Shown here: piece by piece, positions 12,232-59,884 of the stretch | How positions within the stretch are numbered: position 1 is the stretch's first letter | How the letters are laid out: each line of letters begins with the position of its first letter | From: Raja brachyura | Lineage: Eukaryota | Length of the DNA: 64,000 nucleotides | NCBI GenBank assembly: GCA_963514005.1 | Contig: OY740802.1 | Location: 7,378,001-7,442,000, forward strand | Direction of reading: 5' to 3' | Made by a program: the position numbers and the translations under genes | The notes under the pieces: model-generated | Seen by the model: the letters and a program-made list of their open reading frames with translations, nothing else | What the model was told of the DNA's origin: nothing | Database searches by the model: none

Positions 12232-13169
12232 ATATAAATCACTCTCTGAGAGATGCTGATTTATTGATAAAATAATAGATGAGTGCTCTCAATCTTGACT
12301 GTAGGCCTGCAGCCTTGCAGATTATCAACAGTACTTTGCCTAGGATGTAAGGGATGTTATTAGCTTTTAAATAGACCAATTGGTACCTGTAATCATAAAT
12401 ATTTTACCAAAAGCATTGAAAGTCATAGAATCATACAACATGGAAACAAGCCCTTCGGCCTAACTTGCCCACGCCGACCAACATGCCCCATCTACACTAG
12501 TCCCACCTTTCTGTGTTTGGCCCATATCCCTTCAAACCTATCCTATCCATCGCCTGTCTAAATGCCTCTTAAATGTTCCAATAGTATCTGCCTCGGCTTC
12601 CTCCATCAGCAGCTCGTTCCATACACCCACCGGCCTTTGTGTAAAAAATAAAGTTACCCCTCAGGTTCCTATTAAACCTTTCCCCCCCTTACCTTAAACC
12701 TATGTCCTCTGGTTCTCGATTCCCCCTTACTCTGTGCAAAAGACTCTGTACATCTACCCGCCTATTCCTCTCAAAATTTCTAACCTCTATAAGATTACCT
12801 CTCATCCCCCTGCGCTCCAAGGAATAGACTCCTAGTGACTGATGATTAATGAATAAAGGCGGATGTCTAAAATAAATCGTATGTCCCTAGAATCTGTTGG
12901 TGAGACTTATTGTGACCTGATTGCATTTAATCTGGTAAATTAAAAATATTACTTAGTATTTATAAAGTATCTCTTTCCTGGGGCTATATATGGTGGTTAG
13001 TTCTTCGAGAAAGAGTATTTTATGCATTGTGTGCCATGGATTTAATTATCTGCTTCCAGTCTTGTTTAAAACAACACCCTAAAGATACAAAGAGAAGACA
13101 CAAAGTGCTGGAGTAACTCAGCGCATCAGGTAGCATCTCTGGAGAACATGTGCATGTGTTGTTCCCCCT

Positions 13170-13716
13170 TCTGATTGTGGACTTTGGAAGGAGTAGGATG
13201 GGGACCCACAGTCCCGTTTATATCAACGGGTCGATGGTTGAAAGGGTCAAGAGCTTCAAATTCCTGGGCGTGCACATCTCTGAAGATCTTTCCTGGTCCG
13301 AGAACACAGATGCAATTATTAAGAAAGCTCATCTGCGCCTCTACTTCCTGAGAAGATTACGGAGAGTTGGTCTGTCAAGGAGGAGTCTCTCTAACTTCTA
13401 CAGGTGCACAGTAGAGAGCTTGCTGACCGGTTGCATCGTGACTTGGTTCGGCAACTTGAGTGCCCTGGAGAGGAAAAGACTACAAAAAGTAGTAAACACT
13501 GCCCAGTCCATCATCGGCTCTGACCTTCCTTCCATCGAGGGGATCTACCACAGTCGCTGCCTCAAAAAGGCTGGCAGCATCATCAAGGACCCACACCACC
13601 CTGGCCACACACTCATCTCCCTGCTACCTTCAGGTAGAAGGAACAGGAGCCTGAGGACTGCAATGACCCGGTTCAAGAATAGCTACTTCCCCACAGCCAT
13701 CAGGCTATTAAACTAA
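13170..13716 (+). mobile_element. Rex1/Babar-type LINE 3' ORF fragment inserted in a Penelope mini-element
   Basis: LIVDFGR...[14 protein letters not shown]...LRRLRR...AIRLLN, near-identical to 59098-59604. Confidence 0.9.
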
Positions 13717-14139
13717 ACTTAGCAGTGTGAGATACTGCCTGACCCGCTGCATTACTCCAGCACTTTGTGTCTTCTTTTCTATAAATCGACACCTGCAGTT
13801 CCATATATCTCCTTCATGTTTGTATGCTTGGAAATGGCACTGCTATTCGTTGAAAACCTCGTTGGTTTAAAGGGCAGAAATTTGATCGAGTGCCAATATT
13901 TTGTAAAATTTTCAATGAACATAATTCAGCAAATTTTTATTAATGACATTTATATGAGTACCGGCCTTTATTTGCATTCCAAAACTCCTTGGTGATGGGA
14001 AGGGTGTAATTGGGAGTGTGGAGAATGATATTAATGCGTTAAGATCCTATTATCTTTTGATAGGCACAAAATGCTGGAGTACCTCAGTCGGTCAGGCAGC
14101 ATCCCTGGAGAACATGGATAGGTGGCATCTTGGGTCAGT

Positions 14140-14440
14140 CTGGAGATACAGCACGGAAACAGGCCCTTTGGCCCACCGGATCCGCGCCGACCAGCGATCC
14201 CTGCACACTAAGACTAACCTATGGACACTAGGGAGAATTTACACATACACCAAGCCAATTAACCTACCATCCTGCACGTCTTTGGAGTGTGGGGGCAAAC
14301 CAAAGATCTCGCAGAAAACCCATGCGGTCACGGGGCAAAGGTACAAACGACATGCAGACAGCACCCGTAGTCGGGATCGAACCAGGGTCCCCGGCGCTGT
14401 AAGCACAGTGAGGGGCGACTCTTCCGCTGCGCCACCGTGA
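14140..14440 (-). mobile_element. HE1/V-SINE-type SINE inserted in the centre of a Penelope palindrome (about 14060-14560)
   Basis: SINE flanked by ggcacaaaatgctggag... and ...ctccagcactttgtgcc inverted arms. Confidence 0.8.
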
Positions 14441-14596
14441 CCCCCCTGAGTCCTGACCAAGATTGTTGCTTATCCATGCTCTCCAGAGATTCTGCCTGAC
14501 CAGCTGAATTACTCCAGCACTTTGTGCCTGTCTTCAGTGTGAACCAGCATCTGCAGTTCCTCGTGATCGAAATAGTCTTTTGTTGATATCTTGCAG

Positions 14597-37947: not shown

Positions 37948-38391
37948 GTAAAGCCTTCAAATATCTGTTTCAGTTCAGTTTAGTTTATGGTCGTCTGCAC
38001 CGAGGTACGGTGAAAATCTTTTGTTGCGTGCTAACCAGTCAGTGGATAGGCAATACATGATTACAATCGAGCCGTCCACAGTGGACGGATACATGAGAAG
38101 GGAATAACATTTAGTGCAGGATAAATCCAGCAACGTCCAATCCAAGATAGTCTGAGGGTCTCCAATGAGGTAGATAGTAGTTCAAGACTGCTCTCTGGTT
38201 GTGGTTGGATGGTACAGTGGCCTGATAACAGCCGGGAAGAAATGGTCCCTGAATTTGGAGGTGTGCGTTGTCATATTTCCATATATCTTTTAGCCAGATG
38301 GGAGAGGGGAGAAGAGGGATGCACCTCGTCCATGATTACGCTGCTGGCCTTGCCGAGGCAATGTGAGGTATAAACGAAGTCAATGGAAAGG

Positions 38392-38950
38392 AGACACAAA
38401 ATGTTGGAGTGACTCAGTGGGACAGGCAGCATCTCTGGAGAGAAGGAATGGGCGACGTTTCGGGTTGAGACCCTTCTTCAAACTGGTGACATGGGAGTCG
38501 GTGAGATGGAGATAGATCGGTGGGAGAACTGGGAAGGGGGAGGGGATGGAGAGAGAGGGAAAGCAAGGGCTACTTGAAGTTAGAGGTCAATGTTCACACC
38601 GCTGGGGTGCAAACTACCCAAGCGGAATATGAGGTGCTGTTCCTCCAATTTGCACTGGGCCTCACTCTGGCAATGGAGGCGACCCAGGACAGAAAGGTCA
38701 GATTGGGAATGGGATGGGGAGTTGAAGCGCTGACCCACCGGGAGATCAGGTGGGTTAAGATGGACTGCGCTTGGTCTCAGTCCAGTTCACTTGGTTCCAG
38801 TTGTCAACAGGAGCTGACACCTGGAGCAGCGGATACAGTAGATGAGGTTGGAGGAGGTGCAGGTGAACCTCTGCCTCACCTGAAAAGACAGTCGGGGTCC
38901 TTGGATGGAGTCGAGGGGGGAGGTAAAGGGGCTAGTGTTGCATCTCCTGC
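38392..38950 (-). mobile_element. Penelope-like element fragment (GIY-YIG region plus pseudo-LTR), degraded
   Basis: Minus-strand translation FQVRQRFTCTSSNLIYCIRCSRCQLL; sequence similar to 36340-36838. Confidence 0.85.
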
Positions 38951-39215
38951 GGTTGGAGGGGGGATGAAGGGAGGTTGGTTTCTTTGATGGTCTGGGCTGC
39001 GTCCACAATTCTCTGCGATTTCTTGCGGCCTTGAATGGAGCTGCACCCCAACCAAGCTGCCTTGCATCCCCATAAAACATCTGTTGAATTAAGTGAACTC
39101 AAAGCCTGGGCCACCAGTTCCAAATGCAAGCAGCCAAGCCCCACAATCTGAGTGGTGTTTTTGTGTTTTTAATATAAAAAATATAAAAACAAAGAATTGG
39201 TTTTTATTCCTCCAG

Positions 39216-43075: not shown

Positions 43076-44039
43076 ACCGATCATGTTGGTTCCTTTTCCG
43101 AAGGGTGGTGACGTGTAGGTGGGGTGTCTGCTCTCAGTGAGGGACCCTGGTTGCAACTTCCACAACTGTCTGCAGTGTCTTGTGGTCTTGGGCAGAGCTT
43201 GTTCCCAAACTAAGATGCAACCCTGACAGTGGCGCGTCTGCAGGAGTTTGTAAAAAGTATATTTCTTCAGCGGATAAAAGATTGTAAACTTGCAGATGGA
43301 CACAAAATGCCGGTGAAACTCAGCGGGTCAAGCAGCATCTCCGGAGCAAAGGAAGAGGTGATGGTTCGGGTCAGAACCTTTCTCCAGTCTGAAGACTTGC
43401 GGTACCCTAGCGTCACCAGTCTCAAGAAGGGGTACGACCTGAAATGCCGCCTATTCCTTTTCACCAGAGATGCTGCCAGACCCACTGAGTCACTCCGGCG
43501 CTGTCCGCGCACGGGTCCCCGGTTACTTCCCCGGTGAAGGGAGGAGATGCGGATCTATACCGCACTCACGCATGCGCGCGGGACGGGTCTGTCGGCCACC
43601 CCTTGGGTATTGGGATTTTGTGTAAACCATCTATACGTCCCTGTATGTGTTATTAGCGTTCTGGGTACTGTATTACTAAGCCATCATGTATTAGTGTGTT
43701 CATGTTTATAGACAGCCTGCATTTAGATGTGCTTCATTTTATTTCTACAAGGAAAGATGTAGATTGGTTACTCCACACTAACCAATTATAGTGCTTTATT
43801 ATTAGAAGCTCTGCCTGCTACACGGTTTATATTATTGTAGCCCAGCTGGTGCTGTTAGTCTATTTGTCGCTACATGAGCTATAACTACATGCTGAAGTGT
43901 ACTGCAAGTGATCTTTCACGTAACACTGTTGTGCCATGTTTGTGAGAATGACTGGGTCATTTACATGCAGTATTAAACCAGCGTCTGCAGTTCCTTCCTA
44001 CACGTTGTAAACTCGCAACTCCCTTCACTTTTCTCCTAG

Positions 44040-48798: not shown

Positions 48799-48895
48799 CT
48801 GTCTGAATAAGGGTTTCGGCCCAAAACGTCGCCTATCTCCTTCGCTCCTTAGATGCTGCTGCACCCGCTGAGTTTCTCCAGCCTTTTGTGTAACG
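48799..48895 (+). mobile_element. Penelope pseudo-LTR mini-element (mutated hammerhead core)
   Basis: ctgaataagggtttcggcccaaaacgtc; TSD ctcatccgc(c/a)ctt at 48786 and 48896. Confidence 0.7.
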
Positions 48896-54485: not shown

Positions 54486-55230
54486 AATAACCAATTTAAA
54501 CAAAAGCTTTTCACTGACCCTCTGTACACATGACTAATTTAGTTTACTAAACTCAAAGTCAAGAATGAGGGGGAGATGGGAAAAAAAGGGATGAATGTGG
54601 AGTTAGTATTAATGGATGGTTGACGACCACCATGAACCTGATGGGCTGAAGGGCCTGTTTCTCTGTTGTATCTTTCTCTGATTCTGTAACAGCACAGATT
54701 ACAGTAGGTGGAATGGAATTGTAGAAGCACGTGGGAGAGGATGGCTAGAATCAGCCCACGTTAGTTGGAGATGTCAAGAATAACAGGACGATACAAGCAG
54801 CAATAACGAGCAGGTTCACAAATAAATGACAAAAATAACCCTTTTTATGCAGCAGAAGTTTGATGCATGGAGTTAAATTCTAGCTTTGTAGATGAAACTG
54901 TCACCATTCAAGATCATACTTATTAAATACAATATGGAATGAGTTATAATGGGGCAGAGTGTGTCACAAAGAGTGAGAGTCGAAGGTAGACACAAAATGC
55001 TGGAAATTTTCGATTTTGTGCATAAGAAAAAATGTATCAGTTGAAAAATGTATATGTTGAGAAAATGATTGCACAAAAGTCACTGATCGTTTAACCTCAA
55101 GAGGGAGACAAGACACAAGTTATTTGATTTCAGATCATCTTTTAGCATTTCACAATGGAGGTTTGTTCTCAATGCTGTCTCCATGCGGTTTAAATGAGAA
55201 CTGCAAGACATCCTGTGCATGGATTAATGA

Positions 55231-55456
55231 AGTGTTAAAGAAGGAACTGCAGATGCTGGAGAATCGAGGGTTACACAAAAGGCTGGAGAAACTCAGCGGG
55301 TGCAGCAGCATCTAAGGAGCGAAGGAGATAGGCGACGTTTCGGGTCGAGACCCTTCTTCAGACGTCTGAAGAAGGGTCTCGACCCGAAACGTCGCCTATC
55401 TCCATCGCTCCTTAGATGCTGCTGCACCCGCTGAATTTCTCCAGCCTTTTGTGTAC
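55231..55456. mobile_element. Penelope-derived palindromic mini-element with two opposed hammerhead cores
   Basis: 92-bp inverted arms (55272-55455), CTGAAGA-AGGGTCTCGACCC-GAAACGTC on both strands, 13-bp TSD catggattaatga (55218-55230 / 55457-55469). Confidence 0.85.
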
Positions 55457-56001
55457 CATGGATTAATGAGCCTGTCGCATTTATTGGGGACAATTATGTT
55501 CAATAGTCACAGGAGCCGAAGTAGGCCATTCGGCCCATCGGGTCTACTCCTCCATTCAATCATGGCTGATCTATCTTTCCCTATCAACTTCATTCTCCTG
55601 CCTTCTCCCCATAACACTTGACACCGATGCTACAGTAGTTGCTCTACTCAACAGCCAAAAATCTGTAGCCTAGCTTTGATCTGTTTTTTTCTTGATTCAC
55701 ATGCTTGATCAATGGTGTTTTATCATTAATGTTTTATTATTATTAATGTTTAGTATTTTCTGAGTCAATTGTAACTGTCACTGTAAACTTGGTACTAAAT
55801 GAATAGTGAATATAGACTGAACTAAATAAATGCAAGATGCAAATCTGAGTAGAATCGCAGAGGTACTCAGCACAGAAACAGGCCCTTCAGCCCTACTCAT
55901 CCATGCTAGCTGAGATGTCCCATCTACGCTAGTCCCATTTTCCTGCGTTTGGCCCATATCCCTCTTAACCATTCCCAATGAACTTTAAATGAACTGATTT
56001 A

Positions 56002-56954: not shown

Positions 56955-57413
56955 GTCAAAGTCAAAGTCAAAAGAGTTTATTGTCATGTGTCCCTGACAG
57001 GACAATGAAAATCTTGAACATAGTAGGCATTGACTACAATTATATACGTAAATACACCCATGAATTAATAAATTAATAAAGTGCAAATAACAGATGGAGG
57101 GATATTAATGTTCAGAGTTCCGAGCCAGGTTTAATAGTCTGATGGCTGTGGGGAAGTAGCTATTCCTAAACCGGGTTGTTGCAGTCTTCAGGCTCCTGTA
57201 CCTTCTACCCGAAGGTAGTGTGTGGCCAGGGTGGTGTGGGTCCTTGATGAAACTGCCAGCCTTTTTGAGGCAGCAACTGCGATAGATCCCCTCGATGGAA
57301 GGAAGGTCAGAGCCGATGATGGACTGGGCAGTGTTTACTACTTTTTGTAGTCTTTTCCTCTCCAGGGCACTCAAGTTGCCGAACCAAGCCACGATGCAAC
57401 CGGTCAGCAAGCT
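56955..57413 (-). mobile_element. Rex1/Babar-type LINE 3' fragment
   Basis: ESLLTGCIVAWFGNLSALERKRLQKVV on the minus strand with (TTTGAC)n-like tail. Confidence 0.85.
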
Positions 57414-57780
57414 CTCTTGGTTGGTTAAAGCCTGGGTTTTCATGAGTGGTGTAGAAGACACAGACTGCTGGAGTAGCTCAGCGGGTCAGGCAGCATCTCC
57501 AGAGAAAAGGAATAGGTGACGTTTTGTGTCGAGACCCTTCTTCGGACTGAGAGTCGGGGACGTAAGATATCGGTAAATAGAACGGATGAATGTAAGATAT
57601 GCACTAAGCATTGAAGAGTGTCTTTAACATTATTTGAGTTTGATAAAGAGTTTAAAGTCGCAAATGGGCCAACTGTGATTCTCGATGCTACTCTGAAAAT
57701 CCACTGGACTAGTCCAGTAAGGCTAGTCCATGAAGTGAGAATCTTGCATCTAGGATAATAATGTCACAAATTGCGCCTAA

Positions 57781-59884
57781 TGGGCCTGTCCCACTTCGGA
57801 GACTGCAGGAGACTCTGCGGTCGCCACATGTTTGCCACGTGTTTGCGGGTGGTTGCCGGGGAGTCGCCTTCATGGTCGTGAGGAGTCGCCGCATTCTGGG
57901 AACTAGTCGCGGCCTCATTATGGTCGCCGCAAATTTATCAACATGTTGAAAAATTAGCGGCGACCAGAATGAAGCCGCCATGGAGAGCAGCGAGGTCCTA
58001 GTGTGTTGCCGGGAGGTCGAAGGTTTTCGTAGGTTCTCGTAGGTTGTGGCCGGTGCTGACCGGTGAATTTCATTGGCTCATTGGGGAAAAAAAGACAAGC
58101 AGTAGTTTTCAGAATCAAGGATAACCGACCGGTAATGTTAATGTCCGCTGAGCTTCACAGCCGTGTATCTCTGGCTTCTTAAAAGTTGTCTCCACTCCTT
58201 CTTCCCCCTTCTCTCCCCTTCTTCCTCCCCCCCCTTATAAAGGACTTACCGTACACTGTGCTTTAGCCATCTTAATTACAGCTCCAACCTTCCTGTTCAT
58301 CACGGTGTGTGTCTGTATCACATAGGCTTTGCACCGTGGGAATTTCACTCAGACAGCGCTCCCCCCCCCCCCCCCCCCGCTTGCCCTGTCCCCCACCTGC
58401 ATAACGGGCTGGTGAAGGAAGCGATGTGTGCGTGTGTGTGCGTGTTCCACTCTGACAGTCGCTGTTCCAGTTGCCGGTTTTTCAGGCGACTGCCGGCAAC
58501 TTGTAGCACTAACGCCTGTGGTGATGAAGTGCTTCGGGAGGTTGATCATGGCACAAATCAACTCCTACCTCGAAAAAAAACCTGGACCCACTGTAGTTCG
58601 CTTACCGCCACAACAGATCAACGGTGGACGCGATCTCACTGGCTCTCCACTCCGCTGTGGACCACTTGGACAACAAAAACTCATATGTCAGGCTGTTATT
58701 CATCGATTACAGCTCGGCATTTAATACTATCATCCCCTCCAAGCTGGTTACCAAACTCGCAGAACTGGGTCTCTGCGCATCCCTCTGCGATTGGATCCTC
58801 GACTTCCTCATTCACAGACCACAGTCTGTTCGTATTGGTGGAAATGTGTCAGACTCGATAACAATCAGCAAGGGAGCACCTCAAGGCTGCGTGCTCAGCA
58901 CCCTGATGTACTCACTCTATACTCATGACTGCGTAGCCGGTCATAGCGCGAATTCCATCATCAAGTTCGCTGTAGACACCACTATTGTGGGACGTATCAC
59001 TGATGGGGATGAGTCAGAGTATAGAAGAGAGATCGAGCGACTGTCCATATGGTGCCAGCACAATAACCTGGCCCTCAACACCAGCAAAACCAAGGAACTG
59101 ATTGTGGACTTTGGAAGGCATAGGATGGTTGAAAGGGTCAAGAGCTTCAAATTCCTGGGCGTGCACATCTCTGAAGATGTTTCCTAGTCTGAGAACACTG
59201 ATGCAATTATTAACAAAGCTCATCAGCGCCTCTACTTCCTGAGAAGATTACGGAGAGTCGGTTTGTCAAGGAGGACTCTCTCTAACTTCTACAGGTGCAC
59301 AGTAGAGAGCCTGCTGACCGGTTGCATCGTGGCTTGGTTCGGCAACTTGAGTGCCCTGGAGAGGAAAAGACTACAAAAAGTAGTAAACACTGCCCAGTCC
59401 ATCATCGGCTCTGACCTCCCTTCCATCGAGGGGATCTATCGCAGTCGCTGCCTCAAAAAGGCTGGCAGCATCATCAAGGACCCACACCATCCTGGCCACA
59501 CACTCATCTCCCTGCTACCTTCAGGTAGAAGGTACAGGAGCCTGAAGACTGCAACGACCAGGTTCAGGAATAGCTACTTCCCCACAACCATCAGGCTATT
59601 AAACTTGGCTCGGACAAAACTCTGATAAAACTCTGACAAAACTAATAACCCATTATCTGTTATTTGCACTTTATCAGTTTATTTATTCATGTGTGTATAA
59701 AATTAAATAATGGTATATGGACACACTGATCTGTTCTGTAGTCAATGCCTACTATGTTCTGTTGTGCTGAAGCCAAGCAAGAATTTCATTGTCCTGTCAG
59801 GGACACACGACAATAAACTCTCTTGGACTTGAACTTGACAGTCGCCGACAATTTGCTGAAAAATCACCTAGTGGGACAGGCCTA
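57781..59884. mobile_element. PIF/Harbinger-type MITE containing a nested Rex1/Babar LINE
   Basis: TAA|TGGGCCTGTCCCACT...AGTGGGACAGGCCTA; right TSD not conserved. Confidence 0.7.
58504..59837 (+). mobile_element. Rex1/Babar-type LINE, 5'-truncated, disrupted reverse transcriptase
   Basis: VALTPVVMKCF...[16 protein letters not shown]...GAPQGCVLS...KFAVDT...LSNFYRCTVESLLTGCIVAWFGN; 3' UTR ending caataaactctcttggacttgaacttg. Confidence 0.92.

Follow-up and report, generated by a model that had tools for sequence, protein, structure and literature searches.

A hammerhead-bearing hairpin in the skate Raja brachyura: probably a dead end-piece of a Penelope-like element with an inverted copy made at integration

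How did a near-perfect palindrome, with a minimal hammerhead core on each of its strands, come to lie in the genome of a skate? The question is raised by a short insert in a 64,000-nucleotide stretch of Raja brachyura DNA (assembly GCA_963514005.1, contig OY740802.1, positions 7,378,001 to 7,442,000), which we refer to throughout as the window. A preliminary description of the sequence offered two answers: a one-off inversion during integration, or a palindromic family that propagates itself and carries the ribozyme. We conclude, with a probability of roughly 0.9, that the insert represents a single insertion, short and dead, of an endonuclease-bearing Penelope-like element (PLE), probably of the Neptune type, and that its inverted, tail-less copy was made at integration. 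The parts of the insert are as follows.

55218..55230 (+): target-site duplication, left copy, 13 nt, with an AT-rich core (repeat scan; single copy at X10 contig 9)
55231..55271 (-): 41-nt PLE tail, a 3' extension on one arm (present in 17/41 arm matches)
55272..55363 (-): left arm, pLTR 3' segment, model positions 1 to 92, then tail (arm comparison, family profile)
55334..55361 (-): minimal hammerhead core (motif scan)
55360..55367 (no strand): hairpin centre, a blunt head-to-head junction, each arm starting from model position 1 (sequence, centre survey)
55364..55456 (+): right arm, which repeats the pLTR segment of the left arm in inverted orientation and lacks the tail (arm comparison, family profile)
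55366..55393 (+): minimal hammerhead core, C3 at 55366, C17 at 55393, helix I of 2 bp (motif scan, folding)
55457..55469 (+): target-site duplication, right copy (repeat scan, empty site)

Structure, target site and age of the insert

Reverse complementarity between the two arms (55272-55363 and 55364-55455) extends to 90 of 92 positions and fails only at 55292 and 55323. The arms abut at a blunt centre, with a spacer of 0, and form exactly the near-perfect, spacerless palindrome with two mismatches that had been described. Both mismatches are carried by the right arm (positions 41 and 72). The insert as a whole (55231-55456, 226 nt) is asymmetric, as the 41-nt tail at 55231-55271 lengthens the left arm only; the earlier coordinates had included this tail without describing it. 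The whole insert is predicted to fold at -189.3 kcal/mol (z = -25.6 against 200 shuffles). In the tailed arm alone (55231-55363, minus strand), an 8-9 bp stem is predicted between positions ~50-58 and the tail, and the 3' end of the tail could pair with the 5' core strand, at a z of -1.6 that is not significant.

An exact 13-nt direct repeat (55218-55230 and 55457-55469) flanks the insert and occurs at no third place in the window. It scores 13, whereas 200 random boundary pairs scored no more than 10. Furthermore, we compared the locus with four of 21 sequencing runs, namely X1, X3 and X7 (organisms A-C) and X10 (organism D). Contig 9 of X10 runs without a gap from 55027-55217 into 55457-55547, so that 239 nt are absent. 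As these 239 nt amount to the 226-nt insert and one copy of the repeat, the contig represents the empty site and demonstrates both the duplication and insertion in one step. The claim that the element inserted as one unit with a 13-bp duplication is thus upheld, with 55217 joined to 55457 across a single repeat copy. The flank contigs of X1, X3 and X7 reach 24-26 letters into the tail; as this is below the 31-letter rule for bridging, the insert is likely to be present in organisms A-C, where the palindrome itself was not seen. Flank differences from the window in the four runs were 0/611, 13/757, 25/740 and 9/282 letters. The divergence between the arms (2/92) fits the 1.7-3.4% divergence of the flanks among organisms, and the two mismatches compare with a neutral expectation of 1.6-3.1. 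The insert had also been called young, which holds in a relative sense only: the arms have diverged by 2.2%, and the insert is probably shared with two other organisms.

Much of the window (2689-44082, plus strand) is the 3' half of PREX1, with 14 exon matches that are 88-100% identical to a protein labelled Amblyraja radiata, as suits a host among skates or their close kin, and a stop after 44079. The palindrome lies ~11.2 kb past this stop codon, outside the coding introns. Older head-to-head PLE pairs were found within PREX1 introns at 12.1, 13-14.5, 15.9, 33.3, 34.7 and 43.4 kb; given this location it is these older pairs, and not the focal copy, that would be imperfect hairpins in pre-mRNA. 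A long multi-segment inverted repeat (57035-57417 / 59304-59843; best segment 201 nt, 97%) surrounds an RT fragment at 58597-59184, and is probably either two opposite LINE fragments or a 5' inversion. The window also contains two assembly gaps, at 246-428 and 31735-32312 (761 N in total).

The parent element and its hammerhead motif

A family profile seeded from the focal arm and run over the 64-kb window returned 41 arm matches. Those at 36708(+) and 38483(-) come directly after a pyrimidine-rich spacer that is itself preceded by the C-terminal end of a GIY-YIG endonuclease, the endonuclease remnants lying at 36.3-36.6 kb and 38.6-39.0 kb. Three related copies in the window are these.

36296..36838 (+): longer copy, in which a GIY-YIG endonuclease C-terminal remnant and ~90 nt of pyrimidine-rich spacer precede a tailed hammerhead arm that is 91.7% identical to the focal long arm
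38390..39050 (-): longer copy, with a decayed Zn-finger-like linker and GIY-YIG remnant (stop, deletion), then a tail-less arm (ORF/profile comparison)
48801..48895 (+): closest relative, non-palindromic, consisting of one tail-less arm from the focal sub-lineage flanked by a 13-nt duplication of its own, with 1 mismatch (private variants, duplication scan)

The PLE origin proposed earlier is therefore borne out, in that the same arm closes two longer copies ending in a GIY-YIG endonuclease remnant. Judged from sequence, the arm is the 3' end of an endonuclease-bearing PLE, probably of the Neptune type. The window remnant matches the Pfam GIY-YIG model weakly, with an E value of 0.038 that falls short of the cutoff, and is 49-70% identical to nine database proteins, seven of which themselves give weak Pfam GIY-YIG matches. 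A CX4CxxC linker precedes the GIY-YIG motif intact in three of the nine homologues and aligns with the decayed motif of the 38.5-kb copy; in the window remnant both outer cysteines are mutated and the middle cysteine is kept. A CX2-5CxxC linker before GIY-YIG is described as a mark of Neptune and Nematis (PMC8557442). By eye, some of the homologues extend N-terminally into RT-like sequence. No PLE RT domain and no full-length parent was found upstream of any arm in the window, and a Pfam scan of 126 unmasked ORFs of at least 60 aa gave just three RT fragments. The clade, resting on the endonuclease remnants, is for this reason given as probable, and we chose Neptune over Nematis on account of host range.

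In both longer copies a pyrimidine-rich segment of ~90 nt with GT..AG-like ends (36616-36707, plus strand, and ~38484-38574, minus strand) leads from the endonuclease stop to the hammerhead. It closes at helix I and resembles, in its sequence pattern, the reported intron of Penelope in D. virilis. A spliced template was considered for the truncated copies and rejected, as these retain the G before position 2 and have no common upstream exon.

The hammerhead core, CUGAAGA-A-GGGU(CUCG)ACCC-GAAAC-GUC, reads at 55366-55393 on the plus strand and at 55361-55334 on the minus strand. Both focal arms have CUGANGA, GAAA, UH, an extra base after A9, the G10.1-C11.1 pair and the palindromic 15.2-16.2 positions, and the minimal hammerheads (min-HHR) of PLEs are likewise described as having the cores, the extra base after A9, a closing G-C pair and a palindromic ACGU (PMC4209133). 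The minimal type I motif with a self-complementary ACGU stem III, which had been recognized in the sequence, is thus intact in both arms. Helix I, which would be expected to have 4-5 bp in a min-HHR, is limited to two contiguous pairs in the focal arm, and in four copies in natural context it never exceeds two. All core letters are retained in 6 of 17 full-core copies, and these 17 contain no two-sided compensatory change in stem II. It had also been asked whether the core is better conserved than its flanks. Outside CpG, the core is identical at 262/285 letters among the window copies and the downstream sequence at 1757/2106 (p=0.048), so that the core fares slightly better than the downstream part overall; it is no better kept than the best downstream block, positions 45-82 (1149/1283; p=0.44). 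Rfam gave no match in the window at the gathering score, and the 11 matches at E<=10 include no hammerhead family. The miRNA-family matches at E<=10 were all below the gathering score and were set aside as reflecting a generic hairpin.

Folding predictions agree with the suggestion that the hairpin sequesters the ribozyme. The predicted probability of stem II is 0.0 for either strand of the complete insert, and likewise 0.0 for nascent transcripts, since transcription always yields the antisense arm first. It is 0.001-0.004 in an isolated arm, and in a 36-nt piece stem II comes within 0.5 kcal/mol of the best fold. We read the hammerhead as a passenger from the parent pLTR that would be trapped within the 92-bp stem of any read-through transcript. 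In an anole PLE, hammerhead cleavage is described as protein dependent and the motif as dispensable for insertion in vitro (PMC11167929).

Origin of the inverted arm

The inversion point could be inherited or set anew at each insertion, and we examined this in ten head-to-head pairs selected visually among the matches; at the 34.7-kb locus, which is three-armed, the outer two arms were used. All eight of the centres read differ from one another, and within the 64-kb window the focal pair is the only one with position 1 on both sides; in the remaining two pairs other sequence, several hundred bases long, separates the arms. The tail stands on exactly one arm in eight of the ten pairs, on both arms in none and on neither in two, in which the second arm ends before the tail region. 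With 17/41 arms tailed and 18/41 tail-less, mixed composition in 8/8 pairs has p=0.004 under independent choice. Similarly, published PLE insertions are described as an inverted 5'-truncated copy with a 30-40 bp tail at one end (PMC8557442; PMC3846280; PMC8969392). When 22 loci were tested for target-site duplications, 6 of them, including both palindromic and single-arm insertions, had one of 11-14 nt, and the other 16 had none of at least 11 nt. In two inverted pairs (13163-13729 and 14137-14449) other repeats, amounting to several hundred bases, stand between the arms, and the first of these pairs contains a LINE C-terminus-like ORF at 13117-13716. In another pair, the spacer between the arms (43387-43419) resembles one more 30-nt copy of the hammerhead segment, now decayed, which may form a mini-tandem with the right arm.

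Kinship among the arms was compared as well. The private variants of the focal arms are common to each other and mostly to the copy at 48801, which has those at 37, 49, 83, 84 and 90 yet is single-armed. A partner arm was the nearest neighbour in 3 of 18 rankable comparisons, the focal pair among the three; this test gave little support beyond the focal, 12.1-kb and 33.3-kb pairs and is weak for old copies. A 93-nt contig from X1 spans the focal centre, reaching 60 and 30 letters to its two sides, and aligns with 8 differing letters and 1 gap, so a similar centre may recur elsewhere. Read joints at 55363-55367 (12 of the 15 joints listed, of 1575) were discounted, as the joints are short and the homology of the query to natural copies ends there. 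Of the two answers first offered, inversion at integration is favoured by ten pairs in 64 kb with differing centres, although those same ten pairs show that it was no one-off rarity. A shared inversion point, and with it the self-propagating palindromic family, is not supported by the eight differing centres in the window, the X1 contig being a possible exception.

The 5' ends of the arms are not randomly placed. Among the 41 arms, 11 stop at positions 0-3, 17 at 4-30 and 7 beyond 30, while 6 (1 ambiguous) continue into natural upstream sequence. The ends therefore pile up, with 11 of 28 truncated arms falling within 4 of 31 positions (p=4e-4). These 11 comprise five of six single arms (among them 28196, 46820, 48801 and 61116) and six paired ones. 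Hammerhead cleavage was rejected as the origin of these ends, which lie at 0-3 and not after C17 (position 30). Five natural copies have a match to YYANWYY, the initiator consensus, exactly at the pile-up site. In three single arms, 28196(+), 46820(-) and 53412(-), G-A stands just before model position 1, as a copied cap and initiator A would give. An initiator-like motif has been noted in a pLTR elsewhere (PMC3846280).

Read inward from each copy of the duplication, each arm of the focal insert is the antisense (cDNA) strand starting at an element 3' end, the left arm at the tail end and the right arm at the tail-less end. The protein of a studied PLE is reported to cut and extend both target strands, with two internal RT start sites bounding the tail (PMC11167929). 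We infer that the parent RT-endonuclease would make a mirror copy at each integration, with no inheritance from a palindromic master. The endonuclease would make two nicks 13 nt apart, and a single RNA would serve as template for two cDNAs, each primed by the 3' end at one nick; one of them would start at the tail end and the other at a tail-less site ~40 nt further in. Synthesis of both would halt at a shared stop (model position 0-1), after which the 3' ends of the cDNAs would be joined. The pile-up of 5' ends beside the hammerhead fits two cDNAs primed from both nicks, and we favour such twin first-strand synthesis as the sub-mechanism, at what we judge to be even odds. More tentatively, and at somewhat under even odds, the hairpin centre would be the 5' end of the element RNA itself. 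The initiator-like motif would then adjoin the hammerhead, and the RT would prime on the first pLTR copy of the RNA and run off its capped end after ~95 or 133 nt, twice per event from the two start sites. If so, the "inverted pLTR plus one tail" of PLEs would be a product of twin first-strand synthesis and not of folding back. In D. virilis the start is reported 46 bp before the intron that ends at the hammerhead (PMC2377424), and for that reason we offer this reading of the centre as conjecture.

The main competitor of twin priming accepts the same PLE origin and has the inverted arm arise by fold-back self-priming, either of the first cDNA or on an antisense template, so that it is a rival at the level of the sub-mechanism only. 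Self-priming on an antisense template has been proposed for head-to-head palindromes of Adineta PLEs (PMC3846280), the natural 5' edge of the hammerhead is a short quasi-palindrome, and several centres fall on short local palindromes. However, the focal centre is blunt, without a loop or spacer, and the 11 arms that stop at 0-3 include single ones and need no partner to do so. Moreover, the tail-less end (~93-96) also terminates single arms with duplications of their own (48801, 61116 and 16704), and so behaves as an independent priming site. Fold-back is a serious possibility that we nonetheless consider doubtful.

Two further explanations were considered. A self-propagating, non-autonomous palindromic family, MITE-like or retrozyme-like, with the 226-nt hairpin as its master, would suit a compact unit bounded by a duplication, the X1 contig that may share its centre, and the extreme abundance of the family, with a summed read depth in the millions over the arms as against ~10 on unique flank, although depth is not copy number; non-autonomous PLE derivatives are also known, in the form of retrozymes (10.64898/2026.07.22.740005). 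Against it, each of the eight centres read in the window is different, the nearest relative has a single arm, the pairs fall in different sub-lineages, retrozymes are described as tandem and not inverted (10.64898/2026.07.22.740005), and the hairpin is predicted to bury both the hammerhead and the tail-less priming region; we regard such a family as improbable. Even less credible is a host hairpin kept by selection as a source of dsRNA or siRNA, an editing substrate or a cruciform. Its 92-bp stem (z = -25.6) and probable presence in three organisms speak for such a role, but the two arm mismatches match neutral expectation, the site is empty in organism D and lies far past the PREX1 stop, outside its coding introns, and Rfam returned only sub-threshold, generic hairpin matches.

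Relation to known elements and significance

The insert shares with described insertions of endonuclease-bearing PLEs (PMC8557442; PMC3846280) a head-to-head inverted copy, heavy 5' truncation and a one-ended tail, of 41 nt here and 30-40 bp as described there. Its target-site duplication is 13 nt, in comparison with 8-10 bp given for Adineta (PMC3846280). It differs from the insertions described in those accounts in that both copies are cut down to the pLTR end, leaving a 226-nt hairpin with no ORF, and in that 5' ends pile up at one position. With the min-HHR it shares the CUGANGA and GAAA cores, the extra nucleotide between A9 and stem II, G10.1-C11.1, the palindromic 15.2-16.2 positions and the lack of a loop 3, and opposite-strand pairs 100-700 bp apart are described in Schistosoma (PMC4209133). 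Stem II is 4 bp here and helix I is 2 bp, a length also described for D. virilis (PMC4209133). In contrast to the min-HHR as described, the cores here are abutted and inverted, so that they anneal mutually and are unable to form a tandem dimer.

Another close parallel is Poseidon PAc of Anolis carolinensis (Frangieh et al. 2024, PMC11167929), which is described as having a hammerhead ~100 nt upstream of two tail-bounding RT start sites and an AT-rich target, both features shared with the skate insert, and in which both strands are cut and extended; the parent here, in contrast, looks Neptune-type, with its Zn-finger-like linker. Non-LTR retrozymes (10.64898/2026.07.22.740005) are also non-coding, derived from PLE pLTRs, equipped with a type I hammerhead and reported in a cartilaginous fish. 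They are described as head-to-tail tandems giving dimers or circles, and we rejected retrozyme identity for the present insert on account of its head-to-head arrangement. A search of the literature, as distinct from repeat databases, found neither this skate family described nor twin priming put forward to explain PLE inversions, and the origin of the tandem and inverted structures of PLEs is still called undefined (PMC8557442). The insertion structure and the hammerhead motif are already described; the pile-up of 5' ends beside the hammerhead is new to the literature searched.

In summary, the locus itself carries little weight, being one of many dead PLE end-pieces. Its value is that of a clean example, in which the cores are intact, the duplication is perfect and the orthologous site is known in its empty state, and its pattern of presence and absence is usable as a phylogenetic marker among the organisms compared. 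The one-tail rule and the sharp 5' stop can be counted genome-wide, and could separate twin priming from self-priming. Finally, if the hairpin centre is indeed the end of the element RNA, skate genomes, with a stump every ~2 kb in this window, would hold a very large natural read-out of the mechanism of PLE integration.
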